This document shows positions 13,949-59,741 of a stretch of 64,000 bases of DNA, piece by piece; position 1 is the first letter of the stretch, and every line of letters begins with the position of its first letter. The notes beneath the pieces were generated by a model. It made no database searches and was not told where the DNA came from. It saw nothing but the letters and a program-made list of their open reading frames with translations. The position numbers were made by a program, and so were the translations under genes. The DNA comes from an uncultured bacterium (lineage in GTDB: Bacteria > Omnitrophota > Omnitrophia > Omnitrophales > Aquincolibacteriaceae): contig CAYZYT010000002.1 of NCBI GenBank assembly GCA_964482725.1, forward strand, positions 74,437 to 138,436, written 5' to 3'.

Positions 13949-14035
13949 TTTAAAAATTCCGGGGAACGGTTAACGGAAAATGGTAAACAGAACCTGAGGC
14001 TTTTCTTTTCGAGGATCGCTCCCCGCTCCACGTCA

Positions 14036-43749: not shown

Positions 43750-43885
43750 CATCCCCTTATCAAGTTGAGATGGCAAAATACGGAACGGGCGTCATTATCT
43801 CCCGTCCGGAAAATTTGGCAAATCAAAAAATACGGCACAGCGCATACCGGAAAGGCAAAAGCGCATTTGGTAGGAGTTAAAACTC

Positions 43886-43964
43886 TGGACCAGAGACTGG
43901 AGACCAGAGACAGGGCTGGCGTTTTCGGCTTCGACTGTAGTCTCTAGGCTGTGGTCTGTGGTCC
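43886..43964. repeat. Long imperfect hairpin built from CAGAGAC/GTCTCTG-type heptamer repeats (same simple-repeat family as inside the giant ORF)
   Basis: GGACCAGAGACTGGAGACCAGAGACAG ... CTGTAGTCTCTAGGCTGTGGTCTGTGGTCC. Confidence 0.5.
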
Positions 43965-43992
43965 GCTCTTAAGATTTTTCGCAATGGGTGGG

Positions 43993-44037
43993 GAGAAAAA
44001 AAGGGACAGGCTGAATTTCCTTAAATCAGCCTGCCCC
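43993..44037 (-). terminator. Rho-independent terminator downstream of the giant ORF
   Basis: Minus strand: GGGGCAGGCTGA-tttaaggaaat-TCAGCCTGTCCC followed by TTTTTTT. Confidence 0.55.
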
Positions 44038-44090
44038 CTTTTTCCGATCTCCCTTCCGGGGTGAGATCGATCGAATTTAAAGATGATCCG

Positions 44091-47000
44091 CTACGCTGAA
44101 GCCTTCACCCTTACCTGAGCCGCTATATAGCTCGTCAGCTCGGCCATTAAGGCTTCTAATCCGCCCAATTTCTCGACAGACACAAAGTGATACCCCATGG
44201 ACCATATCGCCTCATTGAGAAGCTTATCCGCGGCAAGAAGCGCAGAAGCGGTCTGCTTGAGAGGATCCCGAGCCCCGACTACGCTCAAGAGCTGCTTGCG
44301 TGAACCGATCTTCCGGGTCACGACCGAATCCTGACGATCCGTGATAAGCGCCACGGGTTTTCCAACCGGCGCCGCAGCGTTATAAAATTCAGCAAACGCT
44401 CCGACAAACTCGTTCTCGCTTGCGAAAGCCTGCACCTTAAAATTTTGCGGCAGCACGCCTTTCAGGTTCAGGGCCGAAAGTTCTTTTTCAAAAAGAGCGA
44501 CCTCGGAAGCCTCCGCGATCAAAGCCAGCACGACGCCGTCTTTCGGGTTATAAAGCGCGAATGTTACCAGAGGCAGCACGCTCGCAGCATCCGGAACCCC
44601 TTGCCGCTGGTCAATGACCATACGCCCGGTAGAAGCGGTCGCAAAATGGCTGATGATCTCGTTAAACACAGGCCATCTTGTCGCAAAAGCCGGAGGAACC
44701 ACCGGGGCGGCCTGATAATGAACCGTTCCGGCAAAAACCAGCGGCGCGATCTCCGAAGCATACGCCGTCGAACTCGACAGTAGCGGCGAAACCGTATTCG
44801 CCGCCACCCGGATCGCCGTCCCGACCTTCGCTGTCAAACTGGTCGTATCAACTCCGGGGACCAGAGGAATGACGGGCGTCTCATAAGTACGGACTTCAGA
44901 ACGGGCGGTTATTTCGCCTTGCAATAGATCAAGCATCGCGATTTCATCCGCCACTCGCCTCGATTCCTGGTCGATTTTTCTAAGTCGCTCGTCTTGCGAC
45001 GGCATCTCATCGATCCCCAAGGCATTACCGTCCAAACCATTCAAACGGTCGTGCAACTCTGCCAAACGGCTCGCGATCTCAGTTCTTATCTCGTCTAATT
45101 GCAAACGAAGTTTGGCATCCAGCGCCTGCCCAGAAAGGAATTTACCGATAACCTGGCCTGACAACGACTCCCAACGCGATCTCAATCCGTCCGCACGCTT
45201 GGAACGTTCCTTTTCAAGGTTCTCAAGCGCTTGAAAACGGTCAGCGTAAAGTCTCCTGACTGGCGACGTAGCACTGGATCGTACACCAAAAAAACTGTCC
45301 TTGGGTAAGCCTGGCAGGAACCCTTTCAGACGAAACCATGCGGCATTGACTTCTTCCGGGATTGTAAATGCTTTCAGTTCCTCCGGCGCTATTTCCCCGA
45401 TGCGTTCGATATAAAGTACCGTTACTGGATAGGAAAGAGCACTCCCCCCTAAAATTTTTCTCACACGTTCTAGTGAGGCAAGGACTTCTTCCGTGGTCGT
45501 AAACGACTTTAGTCTCTCAGTCTCCTGAATCCGGCTGGCGTAAAGCGCCTCAACCGGTTCAGAGAGAGCGATGCCAGTTGAAACTCCTGCCACGCGGACC
45601 CATGAGGCATAAACTTTTTCGGTGGTAGTGAGTGACTTTAATTCTTTCGGCGCAATCTTTACGATGCGGTCAGCGTAAAGTTTTTCGACCGAACTAAAAA
45701 CATAGGACGCTTCCAAACCCCAATCTTCTCTAAAAATTCCGTGTACGCGGGCCCCGGAAGCAAGAATTTCTTCCAAGGTCGTGAGCTGAGGGAGAACTTT
45801 CTTGATCAATCCCGAGACATCGGTTGCCACGGTTTCCCAACCCCTCTCAACTGTCCAATGCTGCCCATCCATCGAATGCCACTTTAAACGAGCAGCCTTC
45901 ATCACTTCCTGCACTGCCTGATAAGGCTCAGACAATTCAGCGCGTATTGCCAATACCGCATCCACTTGAGCAGTACCGGGTACTCCAGCGGCAGATCGAT
46001 CCAGACGAACTTCGGAGCGGTTGCCAGGACCTATCCCCTCCCAATAGCCTCTATCTTTGTCATCATCTGAACTGCTCGGGCTGGCCTCCGCAGCTTGGCG
46101 TTCTCTTTCGAGCCGCTCAGCCGCTTCACGCGCAAGCTGTTCCTTATAACTAGTTAACGCTTCGCTTGAGCGCGGATCACCGATCTTCACTAGCGCCGCC
46201 GCAACGGCATCGCTAATGGAACGGTCTTTTAATGATTCCACCAACGCAGGGACAGCATTGACATCTTTGGTGTCACCAAGCGCTGTGACTGCAGCGCGAC
46301 GAACATCTGGATACTCATTATTAAGCTGCTTACCAAGCTCCGACAAGGCGTTGATCGCTCGAAGCGCTGAAATAGCAACCGCACGGCTCTCCTTGTCCTC
46401 GAGAGTTAAGGCCTTAACAATTTCGGGAATAGCTTTGCCAAGTTCCTCTTGAGCATTGAGATCAACAAGCGCAGCGATAGCGGCTAAACGCACATCCACT
46501 TCCGCATCATTGAATGCAGTCACAATCCCCGGAATCGATTTATGACCGCGGAGTGCGCTAACAGCCGCCAAGCGGACAACCTTGGCGGTATCATGCAAAG
46601 CAATGTTCAAAGCCGGAACGATACGCGGATCGTTGAGCTCGCCGAGAGCTCTAACAGCAACCACTCGACGGTCCGCACCGCCCTGATTATTAACGATAGG
46701 AACCCCGAGGAACGTACCATCCCACCACTTGGGCTGGAGATTCGACAGCGCCTTCTGGAATTGCTTTTCATCAGCACGCGTCTCATTAATAACAAGAGGA
46801 TAAGAAATATCCGAAGACGAACGAGAATCCCTAGCCTCTTGTTCTTCTGATGCTCTCATATATTCGGCTCTGTCATATTGGGCCCCCTCACCACCTAATA
46901 AACCGAGGAATAGACCCGAACCTGAAATCAGAGAAGGTTCTTGAGTGAACGGGACCCCTTCCCAATTCAACCCAAAATAAACCGCCACTGCAGCAACGCC

Positions 47001-50000
47001 AAGCAGCGCTACGGAAGGGAGAAAAGGATAGATTGTTCCTAGCATTAAATTTCTCTTCTGATCTCCCAGTAATTCCGCACGTACGGTGCCGGCCAAAAAG
47101 GCAGTAGACAAGAGACGAGAGACTGGAGACTGGAGGCTAGAAGCTTTGACTGGAGTCTGTAGTCTGTAGTCTGTGGTCTGAGTTCCCCTCACCTCCGCGC
47201 GCTTGGCGATGCCGGTTTTAAGAACAGAAGCTCCTACTGCCGCGGTTCCGCTGGGAGACACGACGCGAATGAGCTGGCCATAAGTAACCAGTTTCGCTAA
47301 ATTTGCATCCGAGAATTCCCTGGTAAATTCACCGTAAGACCGGTTTCCGTTCGCCGGACCCGAGTACCAGGGAGCAACGCCTTCGGACCAACCTTCCCGT
47401 CCTTCCGCATAACCTCTCGCGGCGATATAACTAAGAATGAACGAATTCATCGCCGAAGCGCTGGATCGGGCCGCAAGAAAAGAGGCTTCCTCAGCAGACG
47501 GAACCGCTGGCTCGGAAGAACCGGAACCATTGCCGTCGGACGTTACTGCCGGAGAATCCGTCGGCTGGGATTCCTCCGCATCATTATCACTGCTCCCACC
47601 CTGCTCACAACCGGCGAGACCCATCACGGCTGCGGCGCCGAAAAGCATTAAAGCGCGCCTTACGCCGCGGTTAACGGTTAACGATGAACGGTTAACGCCG
47701 AGTTTCTCGTTCCCCGTTCCCCGTTCCACGGAACTGTCTGTTGTCTGTAGTCTGTAGTCTGTAGTCTGTTTTGAACGCAGTTCGGCCCTTGACGCCCTAT
47801 GCGACGCAGCGCGCGGAGGCTCATAATTGACCGTCAGCACATTCTGGACCACGCTCTTGTTAAGAGTGATGCCGTCCTTCGCAAGGCCAAGCATCCTGGA
47901 AAAAGCTCGGAAGGGGTCCTTGTTTTTTGAAAGCTGCTTGATCGCCTTGATATTGTGATCCGCCAATCCCTGCAAAATTCTGTTATAAACACCCGCATAC
48001 TTCGTGTCCGGCTCCACGCGATCCGCCGCCACAAAAAAGTTGATAATGTTCACATCGTGCCCTGCCAGGTACAGCATATAAAGAAGCCGGACCACGCTCC
48101 GGGGATCAGTAGCCTTCAGCTTCCGAAAATTGAAGATGGCATTCCGGAAATTCACGGTTTCCATAAAATGCGTGAAGCCGTCGAGATCTCCCTGCCGCTT
48201 AATATCGTTCAATTCACTAAGGACCTGCGCCACTTCGTGAGCTTTTTTCGGATCGGTCGTCGCGAGGTGCTTGATCTTTTCTTCCGTCGCGCGAAGGAGG
48301 TTCGGATCGGAATATTCTTCCCAGGCATGTTCCACAGAGATAGCTTCTTTTCCATTCCCCATAAAGGCGTCCACGAGGCGCACCACGGGCCAATACTTTT
48401 CAATATTAACAAAATAGGAGGATTTGGAAAGTTCCTGCATGAACGCGAAATTCTTGATATGGATGTCAGTGGCAACCCGCACGTTGCGGGAAAGCACATA
48501 GGTCGCTGACTGCAACGCCGCGATCTTGAAATACCGGTACCGGTTGCTAAGACGACCATTGTCGAATACAAACGCCTGCTGGCCGTTGCTTGTCGTCCGT
48601 TCGATCTTGAGCCCCAAAGTCTTCATTTCCTTCACGATGTCCGCAAAAGGCTTTTTAGTGAGTTGAGAAATCGACCGGTAAGAACCCAGCTGTTTGCTGG
48701 AGAACATGACCTCGACGGCCTCCTTACTCAGAGGTGCCGCGCCTGAAGCCGCCGTAAAATTGATCCGGTGAATGTCTTTAAACTCGTCAGCTTTTCGGGC
48801 TTGCTCAACCGCCTGGCTCAGGAAGAAAAGCAGGCGCACAAGGGCTCCCGGCTCCAGAGACTGGAGAAAGAAGATCGCGTAATCCAGGGTCCGCGCTTCC
48901 TCAGCTTTACTGTAAAAATCCCGGAAGTTTTTGTACTCCTTAGGCGATTGATCTTCCAGTTTTTTGAGCTCGGCCTGAACCTCGTCATAGACAGCCTTAA
49001 AATAGGAGGACTGACGGTTGGAGGAAAACTTCCTCATCCGCCATTCGAAGAAGCCTTTCTCGAAATTGGCGATAAAGTTGTCGTCCGTGAGAACGTTGAT
49101 AAAAAAATGCAGTTTATCCACGGACATGGGCTCGCCTTTTTGGGTCGCGAGCACATCCAGCGAATTTAAAAAAGCAAGCGTCCGCAGATAACGGGTCTGG
49201 CCGGCATCCGGAAGACCGGCAAGCTGTTCTTTAAGAGAGGTCAGCAGGTTGTAGGTCGTCCTCTCCCCATATTCAACCGTGCCAAGCTCCACATGGAATT
49301 TGACCAGCCAGAAGACTTCTTTCGCATCTTCCGCAGGATACCCCATGGTTTCAAAAATCTGCTGTTCGCGGATCGCGGCAGCACCGATATCTTCGTGAAA
49401 GTTGGCTTTTTTGCCGATCCCGATATCGTGAAAAAGCACCGCCAGATAAAAGAGCACCCTTCGTTGGGCTTCTTTCGCTTTGTCGCCGCCGGTCCCATAC
49501 CGGATGATCTCCTGGAAAGCGTTGCGATAAAGCTCAAACTGCTCCCGGGTGAACTTGATCCCCTGTTTCTTTTTATTAAATTCATCAAACTGCCCTTTCT
49601 CGATCATTTCCAGATACCCGACCAACTCGAGCGTATGCTCCGAGACGCTGGTGTCCTCGTATTTGGTGAATACATTCTTGAGAATCCGGTTGCCGCTGAC
49701 GTCTTTCTTGGGAATCCCGCGCCCGAAGCGAGGGAACCAGGCGGCCATAGTGCCGTTATCAAAAAGACGTTCCAGGCGGTTGACGAGAGTCCCCGGCCCT
49801 TCGAAATCGAGCGCTTCCCGGAGTTTTTCCGGCACTTCCTTGCGCGCAAAATCCGGATGACTGCGATCAATATAGATCTTCTCCATCTCGCTTTCCTTCT
49901 GCTCCACAGGGTCGATCCCCTGCTCTTTTTGGGCGGAAGGCCCCTCATTTTGCTGCTCTTCCACGCTCTTCCGCTGTTTAAACATGTTATCAACGGACTC

Positions 50001-53000
50001 CCGGAGCGATGTCGGGGAACCCTCCCCGAAATGCAGGGTCGAAAAATTCCGTTGTAGGGTCACAAGGCTGTAAACAAGATCCTTCTCCTCGTCATTGAAC
50101 AGATTCGAGAACACCTTGAGGAATTGAGGGAGGATCTTCCACGAATCGGTCGCCTCATCGTTCTGAAAGAGCCGGGCATAATGCTGGAGAAACGCGGTCA
50201 ACCAGAGGATCTTCTTAAGAGGCTGCGATTTCTTATCGGTGTAGTCATTGGTCTCGACAACGCCATAGGCATCGATCAACTTCCGGACAGACTCCGTGTG
50301 CAGCTTCCCGGGCTGGATATCCATCGCCCGCCTTCCGTCGAAGAACTCCTGGATCTTCCGGCTGTCCTCTCGACGCGAGCTGTAAGCTTCCAGATGGCTC
50401 AGGATGTCGTACGTCGTTTTCAGCTGATCGTACCGGGAGGATGTCGTCACAGTCGCTTCGGGAACAAAGGCCAGCTCACTGAGGAGCGTGACATCGTTCA
50501 GCGCTCTCCAGAATCCGTCCAGATTCTCCTTCGCGCTGAGCCATTGAGCGACAAAAGTGCCCCGTTTGTCGGCCGGCAAATTCTTGTGAAAAAGATTCAC
50601 GGCATTTTCAAGTTTGAGGGTCAATTCCTTCCGCCTCGTACTATCGGAATCCATGGCATCGTCATACGCAAGCGCTTTCACAAAAGCATGCGTTGCATTC
50701 TTATAGTCACCGATGCTCAGGTAATGATCCCCCATCGCTCCAAAAAGCTCGATCAGAGCTTCCATGTCCACCACCGGCGCCTGGACTTTCCCGTAAAGAG
50801 TTCCGACATATTCCCGAAGCGCCTTGAGGGATTCTTTGGGATCCAGATGATCCTTACTGTATTTTTCGATCAATATCCTGACCGACGGATGGAAAACGGC
50901 GTTCTTCTCCATCAGAGGAAGATAGTCTTTTCTCATGGTTTCGAAGGTACCGTTCTGCCCCACCATGTAATCCAGCACGTTCATCAACACAAAAACCTGC
51001 TCCGTCAGGAAGAGCTCTTCGGACACACCCTTCCCTTTAGTCGGCCGTAAAGAAAGAAATGCCTGGAGAGCTCCCTGATAGAGCAATCCCCGGGTAAACA
51101 ACCCGGCTCCGGCAACCGCTCCATCACTGGCCAGCTTTCCGGCCCCCAACACTGATTCCGCGAGAACCATCGCTTCGCCCGCCGGATCATATCCGCCCGC
51201 AACCCACAAAGGATCGGCTTTTGCGGCAACATTGTTGGTCATATTGATATTGCGGCCAAACCGGATGGCTTTGATCTTCCCCGGCCCCTGGCCCTGGGAG
51301 AAATACATATCCCGTACGAGAAGGTTCTCCGAGCTGATCCGGGAGAAAGCAGTTTGAAAGATCTTTGTTTTTTGTTCTTTTTCTTCAATGCTTCCGGAAA
51401 ATCTAGCCCCCTCAAGATCCGCGACCGTCTTCGCCGAACGGATCTCGCCTAAAAGCTCCGTATGAAAATCCGGCGTCTTGCCGGGCAACAGGACACCATT
51501 CAAAACCCACGGCAAGCTCACAAGGTTGCCGAAAGTATCCGCCCCGGCCTTCTTCTCCTCCGCGCGAACCTCCGCACGCTTGGCGATGCCTGTTTTAAGG
51601 ACAGAAGCTCCTACCGCTGCGGTTCCGCTGGGAGACACGACGCGAATGAGCTGGCCATAAGTAACCAGTTTCGCTAAATTTGCATCCGAGAATTCCCTGG
51701 TAAATTCACCGTAAGACCGGTTTCCGTTCGCCGGACCCGAGTACCAGGGAGCAACGCCTTCGGACCAACCTTCCCGTCCTTCCGCATAACCTCTCGCGGC
51801 GATATAACTAAGAATGAACGAATTCATCGCCGAAGCGCTGGATCGGGCCGCAAGAAAAGAGGCTTCCTCAGCAGACGGAACCGCTGGCTCGGAAGAACCG
51901 GAACCATTGCCGTCGGACGTTACTGCCGGAGAATCCGTCGGCTGGGATTCCTCCGCATCATTATCACTGCTCCCACCCTGCTCACAACCGGCGAGACCCA
52001 TCACGGCTGCGGCGCCGAAAAGCATTAAAGCGCGCCTTACGCCGCGGTTAACGGTTAACGATGAACGGTTAACGCCGAGTTTCTCGTTCCCCGTTCCCCG
52101 TTCCACGGAACTGTCTGTTGTCTGTAGTCTGTAGTCTGTAGTCTGAGTTCCCTGCACTTCGGAACGTTTTGCGATGCTTGTTTGCAGAAGCTCTTGCTTG
52201 AATGATTTCCACCAGGCGCCTTGGAAATCGTTGTCGATGGACTGAAGCTTTTTGATGGATTCGACCGCGATCCCATACCGGTCGTCAGACGTATTGAGCG
52301 TATCGCCGAACGAGACAAACAAACGGGCGAGGTCCCAAAGAAAGGCTCCCGGGCCCAGAAGAGAGGGAATTGCATCAAGCTCTTCTGCCGTGAGTTTTTG
52401 AGCGATCTCCTGCTGGTATCCGCTCAGAAGGGCTTTGAGATTCTCCCGGTCATAAGCTCTTACCCTCAACCGGCTGAATCCTGCCGCCGAGGAAAAAACA
52501 TTTTTAAAATCTTCGATGCGGGCCTGCCCCTCACGGCTGCGTTCCCAATCCAGCAACGCTTTGACATCGCTACCGCTCTCATTCCACAGGACATTCCCCA
52601 TCTTGACATCCCCGTGAACGGCCACGGAGGGCAAGCTGTGATATTGCTCTAAAGACAATTTTGTTTTCAGGACTTCGATCTCGGCCAGAATAAAATCGGC
52701 ATGCTCGCGGAACAGTTTTTCGCCCCTCGAATTTCGCCCGGGGTTCTGCTCCAAGGTGTTTTTCAGCGCCCGGAGATCCCCTTCCGCCGTCGTGATATCG
52801 ATCGCCAAGCGCTCGTGTTTTTCGCCCTCCGGGGTGAATCCCGAAAGCGCATTGTGCAGCTGCGCTATGACTTTCCCGAGCTGCTCAAAATGACGGGGCT
52901 GAGCATCCTCATAGGCGATCGTTCTTCCCCCTGGGATGAACTGCTCCACGTAGTAATACAGACCTCCGGCCTCCACAAGGTATTCACCCTTCCGGTTTTT

Positions 53001-56000
53001 CAGGATTCCGGGCACGCGAACGCCTTGTTCGTGCGCTCTGACGGCTATGGAAATCACGAATTTGGCTTTTTTCTCATTATCCGAACCGTATTTCAAAACA
53101 AATTGCCCTGTGGGCGATGTGATCAGCAGGGGCTCCCGCATCAGTGTGCCACCGGGAAGCTTTTTGATTTCTAACTGCTGGGGCGCTGTGACACCCAGGT
53201 CATAGTTTTGAAGCATCGTATCGATCAGCGAATCCGTAGTGACAGGAGCGCTCTGACCTTGCCACCGCTGATAATTTTTGATCACCGATGACGGCTGACG
53301 CCAAAGAGGAACGGTGGGACTCGTGGTAACATTCGCAGCCGTCTCCCGCACTTCGGAGCGGATCGTAATCGCATCGCCGATCTCATGGCTCAACACCCCT
53401 TTATCTGCCAGGATCTTTAACCCGGCTTGAACCAATTTCTCAAAAACCAGAATATCGACAGCAGACTTTACCTCAGCAAACAAGGGGACATCCTCGGTCC
53501 CACCCGTCCGAGAAAGAATGGAGAACTCCCTCAAGCTGAGGTCGGCATTCGCATAACTCAGCGGCTCTTTTCTCTCGACCCCCTCACGCTCAAATCGCTG
53601 GCGAATACGTTTCTCCACGACGCCATGCCACATCCCGCTGATCTGCTCCCATTGAATCAATGGCTGTCCCGATTCTTTCTTTTCAACATACTCGTATGGA
53701 AGCAGCTTTGAAAAACTCAGCATCAGTTGCTCTTCCTGTTCCAGAGTCAGCTTCTCCAACCGCTGCTTCAACTGCGCCAAAGCCGTCGCATCCATATCGG
53801 AGATCTTCTGGACTTCAGGCCATGTGATCAAAGAGCGGCCTTCCACCTCAACACCCTCCGATACGGCATACAGCAAGGCGGCTTGATTGATGACATTAAT
53901 AAAAGTCGAGAATAAAGTGATGTCTTTATCCGCCAGAAAACCGTTCTTATTCTTTTCCTTGGAGATCGGAGTATCCACAATATCGGGTTGGCCGTTGACG
54001 GTCACATAGCCACCTCCGGCTTGCCCCAAGTTACGCCAATTTCCAATACCTACATGGGCAAGACTGTGCTTTGCCATGAAACCAAGCACCCGGTCAAATT
54101 GTTTTTGTCCCAATTGCGCGGTCGGACCGTCCGCTGAACGAAGGATCGAGTAAACTTCGCCCCGCATCAATCCTTGAATGAAGGCGAACATAAAACCCAT
54201 GCCATCCCCATGCCCCAGCACGCTCTCGGGTCTTTCCACGATTTGACCCTCTTTGACGACCCAGACGCGGCTAGTATTGAAGGCGATAGCATCCACGGGC
54301 ACTCGGGCAAGGTTCCCGTTGCGGGCGTTGCGCTCGAGGATCTCATAGGTCGCACCAAGGAAAGGCTTCCAGGTCCAGGGGCTAAGCGTATAGCCAAGAC
54401 GGACAGGGCTTCCATTCCCTGCTAATTTGATAAGATTATCCATGGCGAGTTTGACCCCCGTCCCGCCATCCGTATTCTGATTCCCGTACCAGAAAGCAGC
54501 GAGAGCCCGCGGAAGGTCCGTGGGGACATCGTCTGCATTCATCACGCCAGCATCGATCAACGGCTCCAAGGATGAAAACCAGCGAGTTGCCTTCCCCGCC
54601 GCCAGCAGAACTTCCCTGACTCCTCCACGCCCCGCGATATTCCTGCCGGTTTTCTCAAATTCAGCGAGATCGTTCATTTTGCCGTCCGCCACCCGCTGGA
54701 TCACATCTTCCGGGATATTCAGCGAAACAAGCCGCAAAGCGATCTCGTTCAGTTTAAGCGAAGCGGAAAGACCCAGTTGTTTTTGAATGTCCTCCAGAAA
54801 TGCCGAGCGGCTCAAAAGAAGCGCCTTCTTAAATTCCCAATTCAGCGCTGTCTTCAAAAGCAGTGTCACCGAAAGCAAAGCTTCCGCGAAATCGGAAACG
54901 ACCGCATGACTCACGGGCGTGCCGGCGGGAACAATGCCAAGCTCCTTAATGACATTGAGGACCAAAACAGGATCTTTTCTGAAATCATTCTCGAATTTAA
55001 CCAACGCGTTAAACCGAACCACGGGATCTTTTAACGCCTGCTTCGAATATTTTTCGATCAATCCCTCCAACTCATGGACATTGACCCCCCCGACCTTTTC
55101 AGGCAGGACCATTTGATCGGAAGCATCGAGAGTGAGCGGCAAACCCTCGATCAGTCTCTTTAATATCTGACGCGTCAAATATGTCGAGACGATCCTTTCG
55201 GGTGGATAAAGACTCCATACATCCGCGCGAAGGTCCTGCACCTCCAGTGCTCCAGCATCGTTATAACCGATCTGGGCAGTCTTCATCCGCTTCCCAAGAT
55301 TTTCAAAATTCACGGGATTACCGAATTCATTTTCCGTCACCTGACGGATCTCATCCATGCTCGGCTTCTCCAGTTCGTCCCCAATCTTGAACCAAAGCGA
55401 AGTGGTCCGGTCCGCCAGCGGATTCTCCTTAAGTTTCAGATCCGATAAGAACGGGATCGCGATCGCGGTCTGGATCCCTTTAAATATCTGCAAAAGCGCC
55501 AACTGCCGGTCGTGGACCGGCACATTCCGGCTCGTACGCTCCAACGCCTCGGCCGCGTCCAAAAATTTTGAAATATGTTCCAAAACCTCGCTCTTGACCG
55601 TGGGCCACTCCAAAACATTCATCTCCTGCAGCCTCTTCAGATCCGTGTCGAGCAAGGAAGCTCCTGCTTGCGCTGCAATCCGCACTTCCGAGCGGGATTC
55701 TTTGGCGGCCGAAGCCCCTGGTGCTAGCCACAGATCACCTTCACCCGCGCGCTGTCCTTCGCCCTTTGACCGCTGCCCGTTCTTCTGTTCCCCTCTCGCA
55801 TTACGGGCTTCCACCTGCCCGGCCAAAAGAATGATCCTCTCAAAAACCTTCCGGGCGGCAATATTTCGTTCATCTTCGTTACGGGACAAATCCAGTTCTT
55901 TTGCATATCGCGAAAGAATATCCACAAGATCCAGGTCGCCAGCGACATGGTACAGCGCCGATGACTCTTCGCCTTGCGTGCCCACTGTGGTTTGCATGAC

Positions 56001-59000
56001 CGAACCGAATCGGTCCATGATTCTCAGCCGTTCGGCAGGATCTGAAATCTTCCCAAAAGCTTCCCCGCCGAGGAATGCGCCCAACATCTGGAATAAATTG
56101 CCTCTCAGCGAAAAAGTGACCGGACCGGATACACTCTCCTGGGAATCCTCGTACTCACCGTGGTCAATAATATCCACCGCGATCTCAAAGAATTTATCGA
56201 GCACTTGTTTTCGCTCCGCAGAGCTCTTGATCTGACCGTATCCTTTACCGCTCAATAGCGAGTCGAGTGCGTCAAAAACGCGATAGCTGTATTTAGAGCC
56301 ATACCGATGCATGTCGAAGCGCAGTGAAGCGTCATAGCATTTCGCCAGGATCTGTTTTCGTTCTTCGAGCGCGCTTATCCGGCCAAACCCGCTCCCGGCA
56401 AACAATTGACTGAGTGAACCAAGCGCTTGCTGCGCCTCGTATTCCTCGGAAGACGATACGGCGAATCTACTAACAATATTTTCCACCTGCCGCCGCACCT
56501 CGGCTTGCTGGGCCGCATCCGCGATCGCCAGGAACCAGCCGTAATTTTCCAACACCATGCGAACCTCGGAGCGGGCGGCATCAGGAGCCAATTCACCATC
56601 GATCTTCAGAACATGGGTTTTTTGATCTTGATAAGTCCCGGCGAGAACATAACCGTTCCCGAGATCAAGAAGAGAACCGACCTCTCCTCCAAGCCGTTCC
56701 GCGAGGTCGGCGATCCACTCGATCCCCCCCGTAATAGCCCCCGAGCCGTCCTTCACGGTTTTCACAACATAGGTTTTGCCATTCAACCCGACGAGAACAT
56801 AACCATTTCCGAGATCAAGAAGAGAATCGACATCTCCTCCAAGCGGTCCCGCGAAAGTGTAAATCTTCTTAATCCCCGTAATAGCCCCCGAGCCGTCCTT
56901 TTCGGCTTTCAGAATATGGATTCTTGAATCATCCTCAGTTCCGGCGAGAACATAACCGTTCCCGAGATCAAGAAGAGACCAGACATATCCTCCAAGCGGT
57001 TCCTCGCGGGAGGAGAACCTCTCTATCCCCGTAATAGCCCCCGAGCCGTCCTTCACGGTTTTCAAAACATGGGTTTTACTATCCAGAGTCCCGGCGAGAA
57101 CATAACCGTTCCCGAGATCAAGAAGAGACGTGACACGTCCTCCAAGCGGTTCCGCGAGGGAGGAGATCTTTTCGATCCTCGTAATTGACCCCGAGCCGTC
57201 CTTCACGACTTTCAGAACATGGGTTTTTTGATCATCAAAAGTCCCGGCGAGAACATAACCGTTCCCGAGATCAAGAAGAGACCTGACATTTCCTCCAAGC
57301 GGTTCCGCGAGGGAGGAGATCTTTTCGATCCCCGTAATTGCCCCCGAGCCGTCCTTCACGGCTTTCAGAACATGGGTTTTTTGATCATCAAAAGTCCCGG
57401 CGAGAACATAACCGTTCCCGAGATCAAGAAGAGACCTGACATTTCCTCCAAGCGGTTCCGCGAGGGAGGAGATCTTTTCGATCCCCGTAATTGCCCCCGA
57501 GCCGTCCTTCACGGCTTTCAGAACATGGGTTTTTTGATCTTGATAAGTCCCGGCGAGAACATAACCGTTCCCGAGATCAAGAAGAGACAGGACCCCTCCT
57601 CCAAGCGGTTCCGCGAGGGAGGAGATGGACCTGACGCCGTCCACTTTTTGAAAACGCGATTTCGGAATCACGGCCCCGGGCTTTTTTGCGGCTTCCGCCG
57701 CATCCGAAGAGATCATATCCCCAGTGACCATGGCTTCGTTGCGGATCTCGGAGCGGGAGCCAAGCTGACTGGCGGCGAGCACGTGAGATAACAACGAATG
57801 CGCAAAAACCGAAGAGAGCGCCTGGCTGTTAACTTTCTCGGAACGGATCATGTCAAGTATGAGAGCACGGACATTGCGAGCCCAATCCTGGGTCGCAGCG
57901 GCACCGGTCACAGCAACGCGCTCAGCACGGCCGACGAGACCGAGAAGGGCGGGCATTTGGGAGGTTTCAATATCACGGCTTCCGAGGATCGAGCGGAGAT
58001 ACACTTCTCGATCGTTCTTGGAGACTTCATTAATACGGGGAGTGATCTGGACATAAGAGCAATGCTTGGATGCGGCGAGAGCCTTAAGGCCGTCGGCATG
58101 GAATCCGCCGGTCACGATCACGGCGCGTTGCTGCTTTTGCTCGCTCATTTTCGAGAGAGCATTACGAAACATGGCGTTTTCACGGACAATCGCGGTCTCG
58201 TAAAACTCGACCGCATTCGCGAAAACAGACTGGAGACTAGTGACTGGAGACTGAAGCACCTTGTTTTTAGTCTGTGGTCTCTGGTCTGTGGTCTGTAGTC
58301 CCGCCGCAAGCTCGTCGGGAGAAATACGGAAACTCTGAAGCTCAGCATATTCTTTCCTAGTCAATTCAAGACTAAATAGGCGCCTGAGCAAGTAGAGCTT
58401 GCGAGCGGCGGAAAGATACGCTTTCTCATCCGCCGTCTTGGCGAGTGCGGTCTCGATATTGTCTTTCAGCTTGATCGTTTCTTCCTGCAACCCCTTGCCC
58501 TGGAGTTCCTGCATTAGGATCGTCTGCTGGGCATAGAGCGTCCAGTTGGGCCATTGTTTCATTGAGAAATTCTTGGGAAGCTTCGCGAAGGCCATGTCAA
58601 AGGCCCGACGCACGACGGAATATCCGTCTGCGTCGCGGTTAACGGTTAACGATGAACGGTTAACGTTACGTTCAGCGCTGTTTCGTTCCCCGTTTCCCAA
58701 TGATTGTTCGTTCCCCGTTCCCCGTTCCCCGTTCCCCGATGCCGCCTCGAAGGCATGTATAATTTCCTTCGACATTCCAAGCTTCTTAAGCTCAGCAAGA
58801 AAAGAGGCCTGCTCCGCCGCCGCTTTATCCCGGTCAATTTTCGATCCGATCGCCACCAGGCGGTAGTACCGGATAAGGGACGGATACTGGTCCTGATAAA
58901 AGGCGTCCGAGAGGTCGAGCTTGAGGTGCTTCTTACTCCCCTCACCGAGGGCCTTGAGCCAGCCTTCGAAGGAAACGGTTCCCGAACCAAACGCCTCTTC

Positions 59001-59741
59001 CTGGCGGACGAGGTTCAGGAGATCTTTATTCAGCTTCGATGCGTAACGTTTGTCGATCGTGGCCCGCAAAGAGCCCAGGAACTTCTCCGCGGTTTTTTCC
59101 TTCTTCACGACGCTGATAAATGCTTCACGGTCTTTTTTGTACGAATCGAGGTCTTCCACGCCGAACGCCGCCATGCCGGCGGCGCGTTTCGCGGGGAACG
59201 TGGAACGTGGAACGTTTGCGTTAACCGTTTCCCGTTTCCCGTTTCCCGGTAATTGTTCGTTCCCCGTTTCCCGTTCCCCGATTTTTTGATTTATCAAAAA
59301 ATTCTCCGGCCCCGTCAAATACCCTTCCTGCATCAGCTTATCCGTGACCTTCTGATTGAATGCGGGATTCTCGGGAAAAAGTCGGAAGAGTTCCGGCTGG
59401 AGCTTCGCAGCAGCGCCTTCAAGAAGCATTAATTTGACGGATGAATTCTTCTCGATATAACCGAGGAGTTTCTCAATGTTTTTTTCAGCCTGATAATTCC
59501 CGTGCGCAGATTGAATATGAATGAAGGCCGGAGCTTTCGGATCACCCTTAAGGGTATCTGTCACCTGGCCGAGTTCGGCCGGGATCGAGAGCATTCCGGC
59601 GGGCAATGAAGACACCTCCGGATTGAGCGTGGGCACACCCGTGGCAGCGAATGCATTCGGGCTGATCTGGAGGCTGGTAATAAAGAAGGTAAAAACGACG
59701 GTGGAGGCGATTAACTTCATGCTGGGATGGCGTTGGCTCAT
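44091..59741 (-). CDS. Giant open reading frame (5216 codons, single frame, no stop). It is a mosaic: signal peptide; 8 x 51-aa tandem repeats; UDPGP-like nucleotidyltransferase motif; APH/choline-kinase-like kinase; HD domain; TM + HEAT repeats; duplicated lipoprotein-like module. It may be a true giant gene, or several genes bridged by stop-free simple repeats.
   Basis: Uninterrupted frame from ATG 59741 (AAGGA RBS, MKLIASTVVFTFFITSLQISPNAFAA signal) to TAA 44091, followed by a terminator. Recognisable motifs all lie in this one frame: HGDVKMGNVLWNE...LLDWE (APH Brenner motif), VLGHGDGMGF (UDPGP), VLFHDIGIGKK...HEDIGAAA (HD), HEAT/PBS-lyase repeats VRALGELNDPRIVPAL. See the findings for caveats. 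Confidence 0.5.
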   Translation of the reverse strand: MSQRHPSMKLIASTVVFTFFITSLQISPNAFAATGVPTLNPEVSSLPAGMLSIPAELGQVTDTLKGDPKAPAFIHIQSAHGNYQAEKNIEKLLGYIEKNSSVKLMLLEGAAAKLQPELFRLFPENPAFNQKVTDKLMQEGYLTGPENFLINQKIGERETGNEQLPGNGKRETVNANVPRSTFPAKRAAGMAAFGVEDLDSYKKDREAFISVVKKEKTAEKFLGSLRATIDKRYASKLNKDLLNLVRQEEAFGSGTVSFEGWLKALGEGSKKHLKLDLSDAFYQDQYPSLIRYYRLVAIGSKIDRDKAAAEQASFLAELKKLGMSKEIIHAFEAASGNGERGTGNEQSLGNGERNSAERNVNRSSLTVNRDADGYSVVRRAFDMAFAKLPKNFSMKQWPNWTLYAQQTILMQELQGKGLQEETIKLKDNIETALAKTADEKAYLSAARKLYLLRRLFSLELTRKEYAELQSFRISPDELAAGLQTTDQRPQTKNKVLQSPVTSLQSVFANAVEFYETAIVRENAMFRNALSKMSEQKQQRAVIVTGGFHADGLKALAASKHCSYVQITPRINEVSKNDREVYLRSILGSRDIETSQMPALLGLVGRAERVAVTGAAATQDWARNVRALILDMIRSEKVNSQALSSVFAHSLLSHVLAASQLGSRSEIRNEAMVTGDMISSDAAEAAKKPGAVIPKSRFQKVDGVRSISSLAEPLGGGVLSLLDLGNGYVLAGTYQDQKTHVLKAVKDGSGAITGIEKISSLAEPLGGNVRSLLDLGNGYVLAGTFDDQKTHVLKAVKDGSGAITGIEKISSLAEPLGGNVRSLLDLGNGYVLAGTFDDQKTHVLKVVKDGSGSITRIEKISSLAEPLGGRVTSLLDLGNGYVLAGTLDSKTHVLKTVKDGSGAITGIERFSSREEPLGGYVWSLLDLGNGYVLAGTEDDSRIHILKAEKDGSGAITGIKKIYTFAGPLGGDVDSLLDLGNGYVLVGLNGKTYVVKTVKDGSGAITGGIEWIADLAERLGGEVGSLLDLGNGYVLAGTYQDQKTHVLKIDGELAPDAARSEVRMVLENYGWFLAIADAAQQAEVRRQVENIVSRFAVSSSEEYEAQQALGSLSQLFAGSGFGRISALEERKQILAKCYDASLRFDMHRYGSKYSYRVFDALDSLLSGKGYGQIKSSAERKQVLDKFFEIAVDIIDHGEYEDSQESVSGPVTFSLRGNLFQMLGAFLGGEAFGKISDPAERLRIMDRFGSVMQTTVGTQGEESSALYHVAGDLDLVDILSRYAKELDLSRNEDERNIAARKVFERIILLAGQVEARNARGEQKNGQRSKGEGQRAGEGDLWLAPGASAAKESRSEVRIAAQAGASLLDTDLKRLQEMNVLEWPTVKSEVLEHISKFLDAAEALERTSRNVPVHDRQLALLQIFKGIQTAIAIPFLSDLKLKENPLADRTTSLWFKIGDELEKPSMDEIRQVTENEFGNPVNFENLGKRMKTAQIGYNDAGALEVQDLRADVWSLYPPERIVSTYLTRQILKRLIEGLPLTLDASDQMVLPEKVGGVNVHELEGLIEKYSKQALKDPVVRFNALVKFENDFRKDPVLVLNVIKELGIVPAGTPVSHAVVSDFAEALLSVTLLLKTALNWEFKKALLLSRSAFLEDIQKQLGLSASLKLNEIALRLVSLNIPEDVIQRVADGKMNDLAEFEKTGRNIAGRGGVREVLLAAGKATRWFSSLEPLIDAGVMNADDVPTDLPRALAAFWYGNQNTDGGTGVKLAMDNLIKLAGNGSPVRLGYTLSPWTWKPFLGATYEILERNARNGNLARVPVDAIAFNTSRVWVVKEGQIVERPESVLGHGDGMGFMFAFIQGLMRGEVYSILRSADGPTAQLGQKQFDRVLGFMAKHSLAHVGIGNWRNLGQAGGGYVTVNGQPDIVDTPISKEKNKNGFLADKDITLFSTFINVINQAALLYAVSEGVEVEGRSLITWPEVQKISDMDATALAQLKQRLEKLTLEQEEQLMLSFSKLLPYEYVEKKESGQPLIQWEQISGMWHGVVEKRIRQRFEREGVERKEPLSYANADLSLREFSILSRTGGTEDVPLFAEVKSAVDILVFEKLVQAGLKILADKGVLSHEIGDAITIRSEVRETAANVTTSPTVPLWRQPSSVIKNYQRWQGQSAPVTTDSLIDTMLQNYDLGVTAPQQLEIKKLPGGTLMREPLLITSPTGQFVLKYGSDNEKKAKFVISIAVRAHEQGVRVPGILKNRKGEYLVEAGGLYYYVEQFIPGGRTIAYEDAQPRHFEQLGKVIAQLHNALSGFTPEGEKHERLAIDITTAEGDLRALKNTLEQNPGRNSRGEKLFREHADFILAEIEVLKTKLSLEQYHSLPSVAVHGDVKMGNVLWNESGSDVKALLDWERSREGQARIEDFKNVFSSAAGFSRLRVRAYDRENLKALLSGYQQEIAQKLTAEELDAIPSLLGPGAFLWDLARLFVSFGDTLNTSDDRYGIAVESIKKLQSIDNDFQGAWWKSFKQELLQTSIAKRSEVQGTQTTDYRLQTTDSSVERGTGNEKLGVNRSSLTVNRGVRRALMLFGAAAVMGLAGCEQGGSSDNDAEESQPTDSPAVTSDGNGSGSSEPAVPSAEEASFLAARSSASAMNSFILSYIAARGYAEGREGWSEGVAPWYSGPANGNRSYGEFTREFSDANLAKLVTYGQLIRVVSPSGTAAVGASVLKTGIAKRAEVRAEEKKAGADTFGNLVSLPWVLNGVLLPGKTPDFHTELLGEIRSAKTVADLEGARFSGSIEEKEQKTKIFQTAFSRISSENLLVRDMYFSQGQGPGKIKAIRFGRNINMTNNVAAKADPLWVAGGYDPAGEAMVLAESVLGAGKLASDGAVAGAGLFTRGLLYQGALQAFLSLRPTKGKGVSEELFLTEQVFVLMNVLDYMVGQNGTFETMRKDYLPLMEKNAVFHPSVRILIEKYSKDHLDPKESLKALREYVGTLYGKVQAPVVDMEALIELFGAMGDHYLSIGDYKNATHAFVKALAYDDAMDSDSTRRKELTLKLENAVNLFHKNLPADKRGTFVAQWLSAKENLDGFWRALNDVTLLSELAFVPEATVTTSSRYDQLKTTYDILSHLEAYSSRREDSRKIQEFFDGRRAMDIQPGKLHTESVRKLIDAYGVVETNDYTDKKSQPLKKILWLTAFLQHYARLFQNDEATDSWKILPQFLKVFSNLFNDEEKDLVYSLVTLQRNFSTLHFGEGSPTSLRESVDNMFKQRKSVEEQQNEGPSAQKEQGIDPVEQKESEMEKIYIDRSHPDFARKEVPEKLREALDFEGPGTLVNRLERLFDNGTMAAWFPRFGRGIPKKDVSGNRILKNVFTKYEDTSVSEHTLELVGYLEMIEKGQFDEFNKKKQGIKFTREQFELYRNAFQEIIRYGTGGDKAKEAQRRVLFYLAVLFHDIGIGKKANFHEDIGAAAIREQQIFETMGYPAEDAKEVFWLVKFHVELGTVEYGERTTYNLLTSLKEQLAGLPDAGQTRYLRTLAFLNSLDVLATQKGEPMSVDKLHFFINVLTDDNFIANFEKGFFEWRMRKFSSNRQSSYFKAVYDEVQAELKKLEDQSPKEYKNFRDFYSKAEEARTLDYAIFFLQSLEPGALVRLLFFLSQAVEQARKADEFKDIHRINFTAASGAAPLSKEAVEVMFSSKQLGSYRSISQLTKKPFADIVKEMKTLGLKIERTTSNGQQAFVFDNGRLSNRYRYFKIAALQSATYVLSRNVRVATDIHIKNFAFMQELSKSSYFVNIEKYWPVVRLVDAFMGNGKEAISVEHAWEEYSDPNLLRATEEKIKHLATTDPKKAHEVAQVLSELNDIKRQGDLDGFTHFMETVNFRNAIFNFRKLKATDPRSVVRLLYMLYLAGHDVNIINFFVAADRVEPDTKYAGVYNRILQGLADHNIKAIKQLSKNKDPFRAFSRMLGLAKDGITLNKSVVQNVLTVNYEPPRAASHRASRAELRSKQTTDYRLQTTDSSVERGTGNEKLGVNRSSLTVNRGVRRALMLFGAAAVMGLAGCEQGGSSDNDAEESQPTDSPAVTSDGNGSGSSEPAVPSAEEASFLAARSSASAMNSFILSYIAARGYAEGREGWSEGVAPWYSGPANGNRSYGEFTREFSDANLAKLVTYGQLIRVVSPSGTAAVGASVLKTGIAKRAEVRGTQTTDYRLQTPVKASSLQSPVSRLLSTAFLAGTVRAELLGDQKRNLMLGTIYPFLPSVALLGVAAVAVYFGLNWEGVPFTQEPSLISGSGLFLGLLGGEGAQYDRAEYMRASEEQEARDSRSSSDISYPLVINETRADEKQFQKALSNLQPKWWDGTFLGVPIVNNQGGADRRVVAVRALGELNDPRIVPALNIALHDTAKVVRLAAVSALRGHKSIPGIVTAFNDAEVDVRLAAIAALVDLNAQEELGKAIPEIVKALTLEDKESRAVAISALRAINALSELGKQLNNEYPDVRRAAVTALGDTKDVNAVPALVESLKDRSISDAVAAALVKIGDPRSSEALTSYKEQLAREAAERLERERQAAEASPSSSDDDKDRGYWEGIGPGNRSEVRLDRSAAGVPGTAQVDAVLAIRAELSEPYQAVQEVMKAARLKWHSMDGQHWTVERGWETVATDVSGLIKKVLPQLTTLEEILASGARVHGIFREDWGLEASYVFSSVEKLYADRIVKIAPKELKSLTTTEKVYASWVRVAGVSTGIALSEPVEALYASRIQETERLKSFTTTEEVLASLERVRKILGGSALSYPVTVLYIERIGEIAPEELKAFTIPEEVNAAWFRLKGFLPGLPKDSFFGVRSSATSPVRRLYADRFQALENLEKERSKRADGLRSRWESLSGQVIGKFLSGQALDAKLRLQLDEIRTEIASRLAELHDRLNGLDGNALGIDEMPSQDERLRKIDQESRRVADEIAMLDLLQGEITARSEVRTYETPVIPLVPGVDTTSLTAKVGTAIRVAANTVSPLLSSSTAYASEIAPLVFAGTVHYQAAPVVPPAFATRWPVFNEIISHFATASTGRMVIDQRQGVPDAASVLPLVTFALYNPKDGVVLALIAEASEVALFEKELSALNLKGVLPQNFKVQAFASENEFVGAFAEFYNAAAPVGKPVALITDRQDSVVTRKIGSRKQLLSVVGARDPLKQTASALLAADKLLNEAIWSMGYHFVSVEKLGGLEALMAELTSYIAAQVRVKASA
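47190..47768. repeat. Copy B of the 578-bp segmental duplication, ending in [GGTTAAC]n [CGTTCCC]n [TCTGTAG]n heptamer tracts
   Basis: See copy A; the heptamer blocks lie at 47643-47768. Confidence 0.85.
51569..52145. repeat. Copy A of a near-exact 578-bp segmental duplication inside the giant ORF (copy B at 47190-47768)
   Basis: The plus-strand shadow ORFs 47437-47757 and 51814-52134 are identical over 106 aa. Flanks diverge after a few mismatches at the 5' edge. Offset about 4378 bp. Confidence 0.85.
56570..57650. repeat. Tandem array of eight 153-bp (51-aa) repeats inside the giant ORF (SSLAEPLGGxVxSLLDLGNGYVLAGTxxDxKTHVLKxVKDGSGAITGIEKI)
   Basis: The unit ...GCGAGAACATAACCGTTCCCGAGATCAAGAAGAGA... 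recurs every 153 bp (for example at 57400 and 57553) with high nucleotide identity. Confidence 0.75.

Follow-up and report, generated by a model that had tools for sequence, protein, structure and literature searches.

Heptanucleotide tandem repeats have long been noted in bacteria and are thought of as intergenic. They are the most over-represented class of long simple sequence repeats (SSRs), occur mostly between genes and cluster within 50 bp of stop codons (PMC4692102; PMC4679880). They are often mixed and sometimes inverted, vary among close relatives and have no explained function (PMC4692102; PMC4679880). We analyzed a 64-kb stretch of a Candidatus Omnitrophota genome (contig CAYZYT010000002.1, positions 74,437 to 138,436), which we call the window. 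Here, a multi-module open reading frame (ORF) contains heptamer repeats that are read in frame and that occupy precisely defined positions. With moderate confidence, we regard them as hairpin repeats of the known bacterial class that are tolerated in frame at positions permitting arbitrary sequence.

The elements in the window share several properties with described heptanucleotide repeats, which include long SSRs, the cyanobacterial short tandemly repeated repetitive (STRR) sequences and the repeats GGGAATC in Xanthomonas, GGGGA(T/C)T in Nostoc and TAACTGA in Beggiatoaceae. As in those repeats, the 7-nt arrays are short, differing heptamers are adjacent, inverted pairs form stem-loops, sites just 3′ of coding regions are used, and length and sequence differ among close relatives. 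Unlike the known repeats, which are mostly intergenic and under-represented in coding sequence, six of our seven elements are translated in frame and modified against stops, and their positions within a single gene family or ORF are defined.

Rickettsia palindromic elements (RPEs) are palindromic repeats of ~100 nt that lie in frame in genes, where they add peptide segments at permissive positions, and whose presence varies among orthologues. Their consensus sequences are defined and show no heptamer periodicity, and a wide range of unrelated genes contain them. Our elements are likewise palindromic, with lengths of 80–115 nt and folding z scores of −4.4 to −1.3. In contrast to RPEs, their arms are heptamer arrays, their families are genome-specific and their copies are concentrated in one locus type. 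Given the heptamer arms, sequence homology is not expected.

The ORF itself also has described counterparts. Giant “multi-enzyme metabolic cluster” proteins have been reported in Omnitrophota (bioRxiv 10.64898/2026.06.07.730766; 10.1101/2023.11.21.568195), and this literature states that their cleavage points are unknown. The host ORF of our elements is similarly a long polypeptide tiled by unrelated enzyme domains, and its relatives contain cytidylate kinase (Cmk), guanylate kinase (Gmk), glutamate dehydrogenase (GDH) and phosphoglucomutase (PGM). However, these preprints give no junction motif, cleavage points or period-7 repeats, and the 5,216 aa of our ORF are short by their standards. Heptanucleotide SSRs, in-frame palindromic insertions such as RPEs and, from the preprints, multi-enzyme giant ORFs in Omnitrophota are already known. 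A junction signal, R-S-E-V-R, that we describe below is more novel than the heptamer elements.

An earlier note on this stretch (the original prediction) had reported runs of distinct tandem heptamers that abut one another, at six coding and two non-coding sites. These sites all exist, displaced by at most ~20 nt. The arrays are real, but they do not merely abut. Every element is an inverted pair of complementary heptamer arrays and forms an imperfect hairpin of 80–115 nt. There are two families. On the coding strand, type A consists of GGGAACG/GGAAACG arrays opposite CGTTCCN or CGTTAAC arrays, and type B consists of CAGACTA/CAGACCA/GAGACCA arrays opposite AGTCTCC/AGTCTCT arrays. Arrays of both types adjoin in E4 and E5. 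The host ORF and the sites are as follows.

44091–59741, minus strand: giant multi-module ORF of a Candidatus Omnitrophota genome, 5,216 aa in 11 modules (M1–M11), hosting six of the seven heptamer elements
59190–59292, minus strand: E1, type A, (GGGGAAC/GGGAAAC)n ... (CGTTCCA)n, in loop 1 of M1
58628–58740, minus strand: E2, type A, (GGGGAAC)x4 ... (CGTTAAC)n plus a GTTCATC variant, in loop 2 of M1
58224–58304, minus strand: E3, type B, (CAGACCA/GAGACCA)n ... (AGTCTCC)n, in loop 3 of M1
52038–52151, minus strand: E4, a composite of 38 codons (type-B array, then type-A hairpin) between the RSEVQ closing M5 and the M6 lipoprotein signal peptide
47661–47774, minus strand: E5, a duplicate of E4, flanked by the RAELR closing M7 and the M8 signal peptide; the primary interval of the original prediction
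47082–47186, minus strand: E6, a type-B junction hairpin of 35 codons between RAEVR (47187–47201) and a degenerate RAELL (47067–47081)
43884–43966, no strand assigned: E7, a type-B intergenic hairpin between the giant ORF and a DUF3313 gene, followed by TTTT on the minus strand and with stop codons (TAG) inside it
13961–13976, plus strand: a two-unit type-A fragment of 16 nt, GGGGAACGGTTAACGG, in the hisB–hisH spacer; 0.01 expected by chance
47119–47180, 47668–47769, 52045–52145, 58227–58300, 58636–58738, 59195–59280 and 43888–43963: period-7 arrays found by Tandem Repeats Finder

The periodicity is not random. A tolerant autocorrelation, which requires at least 18 of 21 positions to equal the base 7 nt away, detects nine period-7 blocks in the window and none with periods of 4–6 or 8–12, and 50 codon-block shuffles yield no period-7 block. 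Words of two family units occur 12 times for type A (0.01 expected) and 16 times for type B (0.19 expected). The arrays are nonetheless short and imperfect, with 2.1–4.9 copies and 76–100% match according to Tandem Repeats Finder.

The E2 and E4/E5 elements have an identical 3′ arm of 35 nt, including an odd unit, GTTCATC, yet their protein contexts are unrelated. The shared arm indicates that sequence was copied between sites. A perfect GTTAACC array at the position of the variant unit would read NVNR*PL, with an in-frame TAA. The frame stays open because the GTTCATC variant replaces the unit that would give this stop, which supports the suggestion in the original prediction of stop-free insertions tolerated in frame. 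Repeats of CAGACTA contain no stop in any of the three frames, as had also been noted. A high density of HpaI sites had been considered unusual, but this is a trivial consequence of a repeat unit that contains GTTAAC.

It is improbable that the segments are ordinary low-complexity linkers that are selected as peptides, with an incidental periodicity in the DNA. The encoded peptides are hydrophilic, lie in variable loops and between modules, and are predicted as coil in a low-confidence model, all of which would suit a linker. The specific peptides that had been singled out (ERGTGNE, NVNRSSLTVNR and QTTDYRLQTTD) are indeed present in the translated ORF. However, three or four units give barely one period of seven residues, an identical DNA arm occurs at unrelated sites, non-coding copies exist, and arrays of the same families are intergenic in other phyla. 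Moreover, orthologues keep the 7-nt periodicity and the inverted layout, but not the peptides. The original prediction had associated an ordinary linker with conserved protein-level homologues; homologues do occur, but because their segments are not conserved as peptides, they do not point to such a linker. We agree with its view that the primary signal lies in the DNA.

Predicted RNA folding differs among the copies. The fold of E1 (−40.6 kcal/mol, z −4.4) and that of E2 (−37.8 kcal/mol, z −3.8) were matched by none of 200 shuffles each. E7 has z scores of −2.6 on the minus strand and −3.0 on the plus strand, and few if any of 200 shuffles fold as well as E1, E2 or E7. Weaker folds (z −1.3 to −1.9) were obtained for E3 (z −1.4), E6 and the composite E4. 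The arms of E7, which is free of coding constraint, pair better than those of the coding copies. E7 confirms the heptamer hairpin that had been noted downstream of the ORF. On the minus strand, TTTT comes directly after its hairpin; beyond this lies a promoter-like site for the DUF3313 gene. The coding copies have no T-run.

Both families also occur in other bacteria. Exact 20-mer and 19-mer arrays have at least 120 matches each, compared with a calculated ~1 expected by chance in 596 Gb. Among the matches listed are sequences from Gemmatimonadota, Xanthomonadales, Cyanobacteria, Verrucomicrobiota, Kiritimatiellia, Chloroflexota and Streptomyces, as well as many metagenomes. Period 7 is dominant among the matches listed (L004–L243), ~40% of these loci have at least two heptamer types, and 10–15% of the listed arrays have a complementary array within 200 nt. 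Intergenic hairpins of the same arrays, some of them just past a stop codon, occur in many phyla. For example, that of Longimicrobium stands directly past a TAA and is followed by a T-run, and that of Rhodanobacter is intergenic. Example loci with (GGGAACG)n/(CAGACTA)n arrays are L012 (3620–3705), L019 (1963–2040) and L016 (6674–6740).

Repetitive extragenic palindromic (REP) or bacterial interspersed mosaic element (BIME)-type hairpins and terminator-like 3′ hairpins are another point of comparison. E7, L019 and L012 resemble them in standing directly after a gene, and T-runs then follow E7 and L019. The coding copies differ, since they lack T-runs and the ribosome must read through them.

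The positions of the coding elements are defined in part by a short peptide motif, R[SA]E[VIL][RQ], for which we write R-S-E-V-R. This pattern occurs ten times in the frame of the giant ORF and at most once in each of the five other frames across the whole window. Its density of ~1.7 per 1,000 aa is ~100-fold above the 0.017 per 1,000 aa found in a background of 240 unrelated bacterial loci, whose long open segments total 537,717 aa. ORFs with multiple motifs were absent from these 240 heptamer-bearing loci of other organisms, which represent unrelated contexts. The codons of the motif vary synonymously, which indicates that constraint acts on the peptide. The motif splits the giant ORF into 11 modules at the following junctions; the internal signal peptides of M6 and M8 and a duplicated cassette are listed after them.

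57741–57755, minus strand: RSEIR, end of M1
56559–56573, minus strand: RSEVR, end of M2
55680–55694, minus strand: RSEVR, end of M3
53346–53360, minus strand: RSEVR, end of M4
52152–52166, minus strand: RSEVQ, end of M5, followed by E4
51564–51578, minus strand: RAEVR, end of M6
47775–47789, minus strand: RAELR, end of M7, followed by E5
47187–47201, minus strand: RAEVR, end of M8, followed by E6
46005–46019, minus strand: RSEVR, end of M9
44889–44903, minus strand: RSEVR, end of M10
51984–52025, minus strand: internal signal peptide of lipoprotein type, MLFGAAAVMGLAGC, in M6; M8 has an identical copy at 47607–47648
47188–47773, minus strand: 586-nt cassette (heptamer element, lipoprotein module and RAEVR), duplicated at 51565–52150 with 98.3% identity

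E4, E5 and E6 each begin two codons past a motif (RSEVQ-GT-QTTD..., RAELR-SK-QTTD... and RAEVR-GT-QTTD...). The calculated chance that two independent elements would each land within three residues after one of ten motifs in ~4,550 aa is ~4e-5. Elements are present at three of the ten junctions, and the ~4,500 aa of module bodies outside M1 contain no arrays. The original prediction had placed the repeats at module junctions. This applies to E4, E5 and E6, but the other three of the six coding elements (E1–E3) are in loops inside M1.

Homologues offer a comparison for the junctions. An index-free search with the core of M6 found a sole good homologue, residues 311–444 of a 4,097-aa ORF (P0020). 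This ORF has 16 junction motifs, none of which has a heptamer array. At its junction RSELR-GASIKRAIMLTVVAAVFGLAGC, a complete lipoprotein signal peptide stands directly behind the motif, and RSEIR-RIVSIIAVAAVMGLAGC is a second such case. The 38 codons of E4 sit exactly between motif and signal peptide, and the homologous P0020 junction lacks the element. In L246, the region before the homologue of M11 reads RSEAR-GK-[(CAGACNN)x5 - loop - (AGTCTNA)x5]-RSEMR, i.e., a type-B hairpin between two motifs, again with an offset of two codons.

A stand-alone orthologue of M1 (P0003) has its stop codon two codons past the motif. In L001/L002 (11927–12010), the M1 orthologue ends in ...SRAELRQD-TAG, and the next ORF (~2,150 aa) continues in frame with no further stop. 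In P0033, P0034 and P0035, which are at least 90% identical, the TAG position is a Gln codon and M1 is fused to the downstream ORF. The stop codon at this junction is therefore polymorphic between strains. The L001/L002 ORFs have no junction elements. The junction elements of the window occupy the place that a stop codon and 3′ hairpin would have if the modules were separate genes.

The least probable explanation is that the giant ORF is an artefact of annotation or assembly, or a decaying chain of genes, in which case the junction elements would simply be intergenic repeats. The junction elements do lie where stop codons and spacers would be expected, a stop interrupts one junction in a close relative, and the internal signal peptides suggest separate proteins. 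On the other hand, the ORF is a stop-free run of 15.6 kb at 52% G+C, the stop-avoiding variant lies inside the arrays themselves, and most modules have no start codon directly after the junction. Comparable uninterrupted multi-module ORFs occur in several independent assemblies, and multi-enzyme giant proteins have been reported for the phylum. M1 and M11 are conserved as the two ends, and what lies between them varies among relatives, with modules that include Cmk, CofD/NTP-transferase, Gmk, DUF218, HEAT, GDH and PGM.

The loops of M1 are the other kind of position. M1 (57741–59741, minus strand) has an N-terminal signal peptide. Its homologues (P0001–P0008) are all from Candidatus Omnitrophica metagenome-assembled genomes, are 55–65% identical to it and are mostly stand-alone proteins of ~650 aa. 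When eight homologues are aligned, E1–E3 fall in three loops that are hypervariable, differ in length and are separated by strongly conserved blocks. Of the five orthologues with DNA, four have period-7 arrays at these loops and no arrays of other periods.

The heptamer families are genome-specific and are often reused at several M1 loops within one genome, so that families are replaced between lineages. L003 has GTACGGN opposite CCGTACN at loops 1–3 and at a fourth site, L245 has CAACGCG opposite GCGTTGC at loops 2 and 3, and L244 has AGCGACC and TCGGGAC, as well as a type-B array (CAGACCA) like that of the window at loop 3. The L001 orthologue of M1 has no period-7 arrays at its loops, and P0003 has none of the elements. 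In a homologue that is only 26% identical (L235), loop 2 contains a type-B hairpin and loop 1 is missing; given this absence, E1 is a clean insertion or deletion of 35 residues.

These comparisons bear out the proposal that the elements are tolerated as in-frame insertions: E4 is absent in P0020, E1 corresponds to a gap in L235, and the M1 loops swap families or lack them. Presence or absence with the frame kept, as in E4 versus P0020, E1 versus L235 and P0003 without any element, is a further resemblance to RPEs.

The copy number of the units is stable. E4 and E5 have equal numbers of units despite other substitutions in the duplicated block. The eight arrays of the homologue P0002 are unchanged in all members of its cluster, on 26 contigs (16 + 8 + 2) from several samples. 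Neither comparison gives any sign of hypermutable copy number. We therefore consider it highly improbable that the arrays are contingency (phase-variation) sites, in which one 7-nt unit gained or lost would shift the frame and truncate the protein at varying points. As expected of such sites, the arrays are inside an ORF and have a unit length that three does not divide, and the signal peptide of M1 means that products may be surface-exposed. However, the arrays have three to five imperfect units, and contingency loci typically have at least five or six perfect ones. The slippage or contingency behavior suggested in the original prediction also conflicts with the identical copy numbers of E4 and E5 and with the identical P0002 segments.

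Taken with these data, the reading that we favor would work as follows. The elements form two small families of hairpin repeats, with roughly complementary arms of three to five heptanucleotide units, and would belong to a widespread bacterial class that is normally intergenic and often just after a stop codon. In the giant ORF, they would be permitted directly after the R-S-E-V-R motif, where the stand-alone orthologue has its stop codon, and in the three hypervariable loops of M1. They presumably originate and spread at the DNA level, by slippage of units and by copying between sites, and their turnover would be fast between lineages. Those that survive in the ORF would be the ones whose length is a multiple of three and that have no in-frame stops. 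The hydrophilic peptides that they encode may be neutral filler. The junction peptides probably lie in segments that are discarded, being located between two motifs or ahead of a lipoprotein signal-peptidase (II) site; if the junctions are processed, the heptamer-encoded peptide would be lost. Optional presence, genome-specific families and the sharing of an arm fit neutral or selfish turnover under a filter for stop-free lengths that are multiples of three.

A number of observations weigh against neutral tolerance. At a strict threshold, ~78 kb of other sequence across the M1-family loci have no arrays, and strict arrays in the compared loci are confined to M1-family genes and the giant ORF. 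Such confinement is surprising if the element is neutral and dispersed, and it hints at a cause or function specific to the locus. Hairpins recur at the same three loops in homologues down to 26% identity, which could reflect selection on RNA or DNA structure rather than mere tolerance. The same could be true of E3, whose third-position identity to L244 is 0.75–0.90, compared with 0.3–0.5 in most flanking segments. An AlphaFold2 model of M1 from nine sequences has a mean pLDDT (predicted local distance difference test) of 47, and the segments are coil in this low-confidence model. It is too poor to demonstrate a surface position of the loops. In addition, our view of the source genome covers 64 kb, and we identified neither target-site duplications nor transposition machinery.

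The distribution within the window bears on the same point. The original prediction described a dispersed element, and non-coding copies do exist. The motif that it reported in the spacer of hisH (GATase) and hisB (IGPD) corresponds to the 16-nt fragment at 13961. However, of the seven full elements, six are within the giant ORF and one lies just beyond its downstream end, so the intergenic predominance of known heptanucleotide SSRs is not matched. The remaining ~48 kb of ordinary genes and spacers, including DnaK, SMC, AlaRS, RecG and the trp and his genes, have no elements, and the hisB–hisH fragment is their sole trace. Dispersal is thus weakly supported. The motif is repeated on either side of E6 and of the L246 element, and we considered whether this is a footprint of transposition. 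We rejected this idea, since the repeat is 15 nt long and coincides with a functional peptide motif.

The main competing explanation, which we judge unlikely but of some weight, is that the elements are functional RNA or DNA hairpins at module boundaries and loops of a very long mRNA. They might pause the ribosome, which would let the preceding module fold or be cleaved, or they might be sites of RNase processing or of stabilization that determine module stoichiometry. The heptamers could then change in sequence as long as the hairpin stays. Such a function would agree with the joint change of both arms between lineages, in which the hairpin is always retained, and with the occupation of the same loops in orthologues of 26–65% identity. 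The fixed offset of two codons after the motif, the high third-position identity of E3, the locus specificity, and the folds of E1 and E2, which are significantly better than those of shuffles, also fit this explanation.

However, the elements are optional. They are absent at seven of the ten junctions in the window, at all 16 in P0020, throughout L001/L002 and in the P0003 orthologue. The coding type-B copies do not fold better than many shuffles (z −1.3 to −1.4), and complementarity is intrinsic to an inverted-repeat element whatever its function. No Rfam family matches these hairpins; indeed, none is present in the window at the gathering threshold.

The R-S-E-V-R motif is a candidate polyprotein processing signal. 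It occurs between Cmk, Gmk, GDH and PGM modules in L002, P0020 and P0033, and relatives also have DUF218 modules. As judged from sequence, this candidate draws support from signal peptides directly behind the motif, from the strain-polymorphic stop codon and from the duplication of a cassette that extends from junction to junction. A literature search found nothing relevant on “RSEVR” or on a polyprotein in Omnitrophica.

We tentatively propose, with considerable doubt, that the giant ORF encodes a true bacterial polyprotein. Lipoproteins that have signal peptides of their own and, in relatives, cytidylate kinase, guanylate kinase, glutamate dehydrogenase and phosphoglucomutase would be released from it by cleavage at R-S-E-V-R. 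The hairpins would be former intergenic 3′ hairpins that are now read through, the peptides would be discarded spacers, and the arrays would serve as portable in-frame recombination sites. As part of this same tentative proposal, arrays in one frame, two codons past the motifs, would let cassettes that run from junction to junction be duplicated and shuffled, as in the 586-nt cassette of M6 and M8. The edges of this cassette coincide with the first CAGAC of the type-B array and with the junction motif, a pattern suggestive of cassette shuffling through recombination at the junctions.

In viral polyproteins, a spacer peptide between two processing sites is discarded. The layout RSEAR-[hairpin peptide]-RSEMR in L246 resembles such spacers as a functional analogy only. 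In contrast to the viral case, cleavage at R-S-E-V-R is only proposed here, from sequence.

We now note additional properties of M1 and the remaining modules. M1 is the conserved first gene of a locus type with the order PriA, M1, multi-module ORF. A profile search with M1 against PDB sequences gave no meaningful match. In seven of nine members, its conserved blocks FIHIQSAHGNY and AVIVTGGFHADGL match PF04187 (ChaN, Tiki superfamily) weakly and below the threshold, with a best E-value of 0.0023. M1 could be an enzyme with a TIKI-like fold and a candidate junction protease, which we regard as a lead and nothing more. A stretch of ~75 nt is nearly identical in the DNA of the window (~58910–59090, M1 codons 217–277), L003 (10655–10730) and L244, with proteins that are 61–65% identical. 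We rejected this stretch as a case of special nucleotide conservation because, with five orthologues, its excess was only modest (third-position identity of 0.67–0.69 versus a mean of 0.45). A 642-aa ORF at 427–2355 was considered as a second paralogue of M1, but it is DnaK.

M5 is a kinase of the APH type, and HEAT repeats are present in M9. M6 and M8 are lipoprotein-like, identical to each other and each equipped with the internal signal peptide. The majority of the other modules have no family match in Pfam or NCBIfam. M2 contains seven tandem units of 153 nt (51 aa) at 56605–57626 (...SLLDLGNGYVLAGT...DGSGAITGIEKISSLAEPLGG...), with DNA identities of 63–88%, and the unit has no convincing family match. 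The otherwise unannotated M7 (47775–51563, 1,263 aa) matches GlnD-type uridylyltransferases of NCBIfam at residues ~697–763, with a best E-value of 9e-09. This match is far under the full-length cut-offs of the NCBIfam models, and the region is probably an HD or nucleotidyltransferase sub-domain.

The genomic neighborhood is ordinary, with ~52% G+C across the window. Upstream of the giant ORF are GT28, UDG and PriA genes, and downstream are DUF3313, def and fmt genes. The rest of the window includes DnaK, trp and his genes, AlaRS, SMC and RecG. Between the giant ORF and E7 there is a 21-nt inverted repeat, AAAAAAGGGACAGGCTGA...TCAGCCTGCCCCCTTTTT, with flanking A- and T-runs (43997–44043). It is 48 nt past the stop of the giant ORF and resembles a bidirectional intrinsic terminator.

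The coding and intergenic copies of the repeats together are a natural experiment, which separates what the element needs, namely a hairpin and 7-nt periodicity, from the effects of coding constraint, namely stop avoidance and weakened complementarity. The R-S-E-V-R motif is a concrete candidate for the cleavage point in the giant ORFs of Omnitrophota and could be tested by proteomics. It also offers a rule by which giant proteins may be split for structure prediction.

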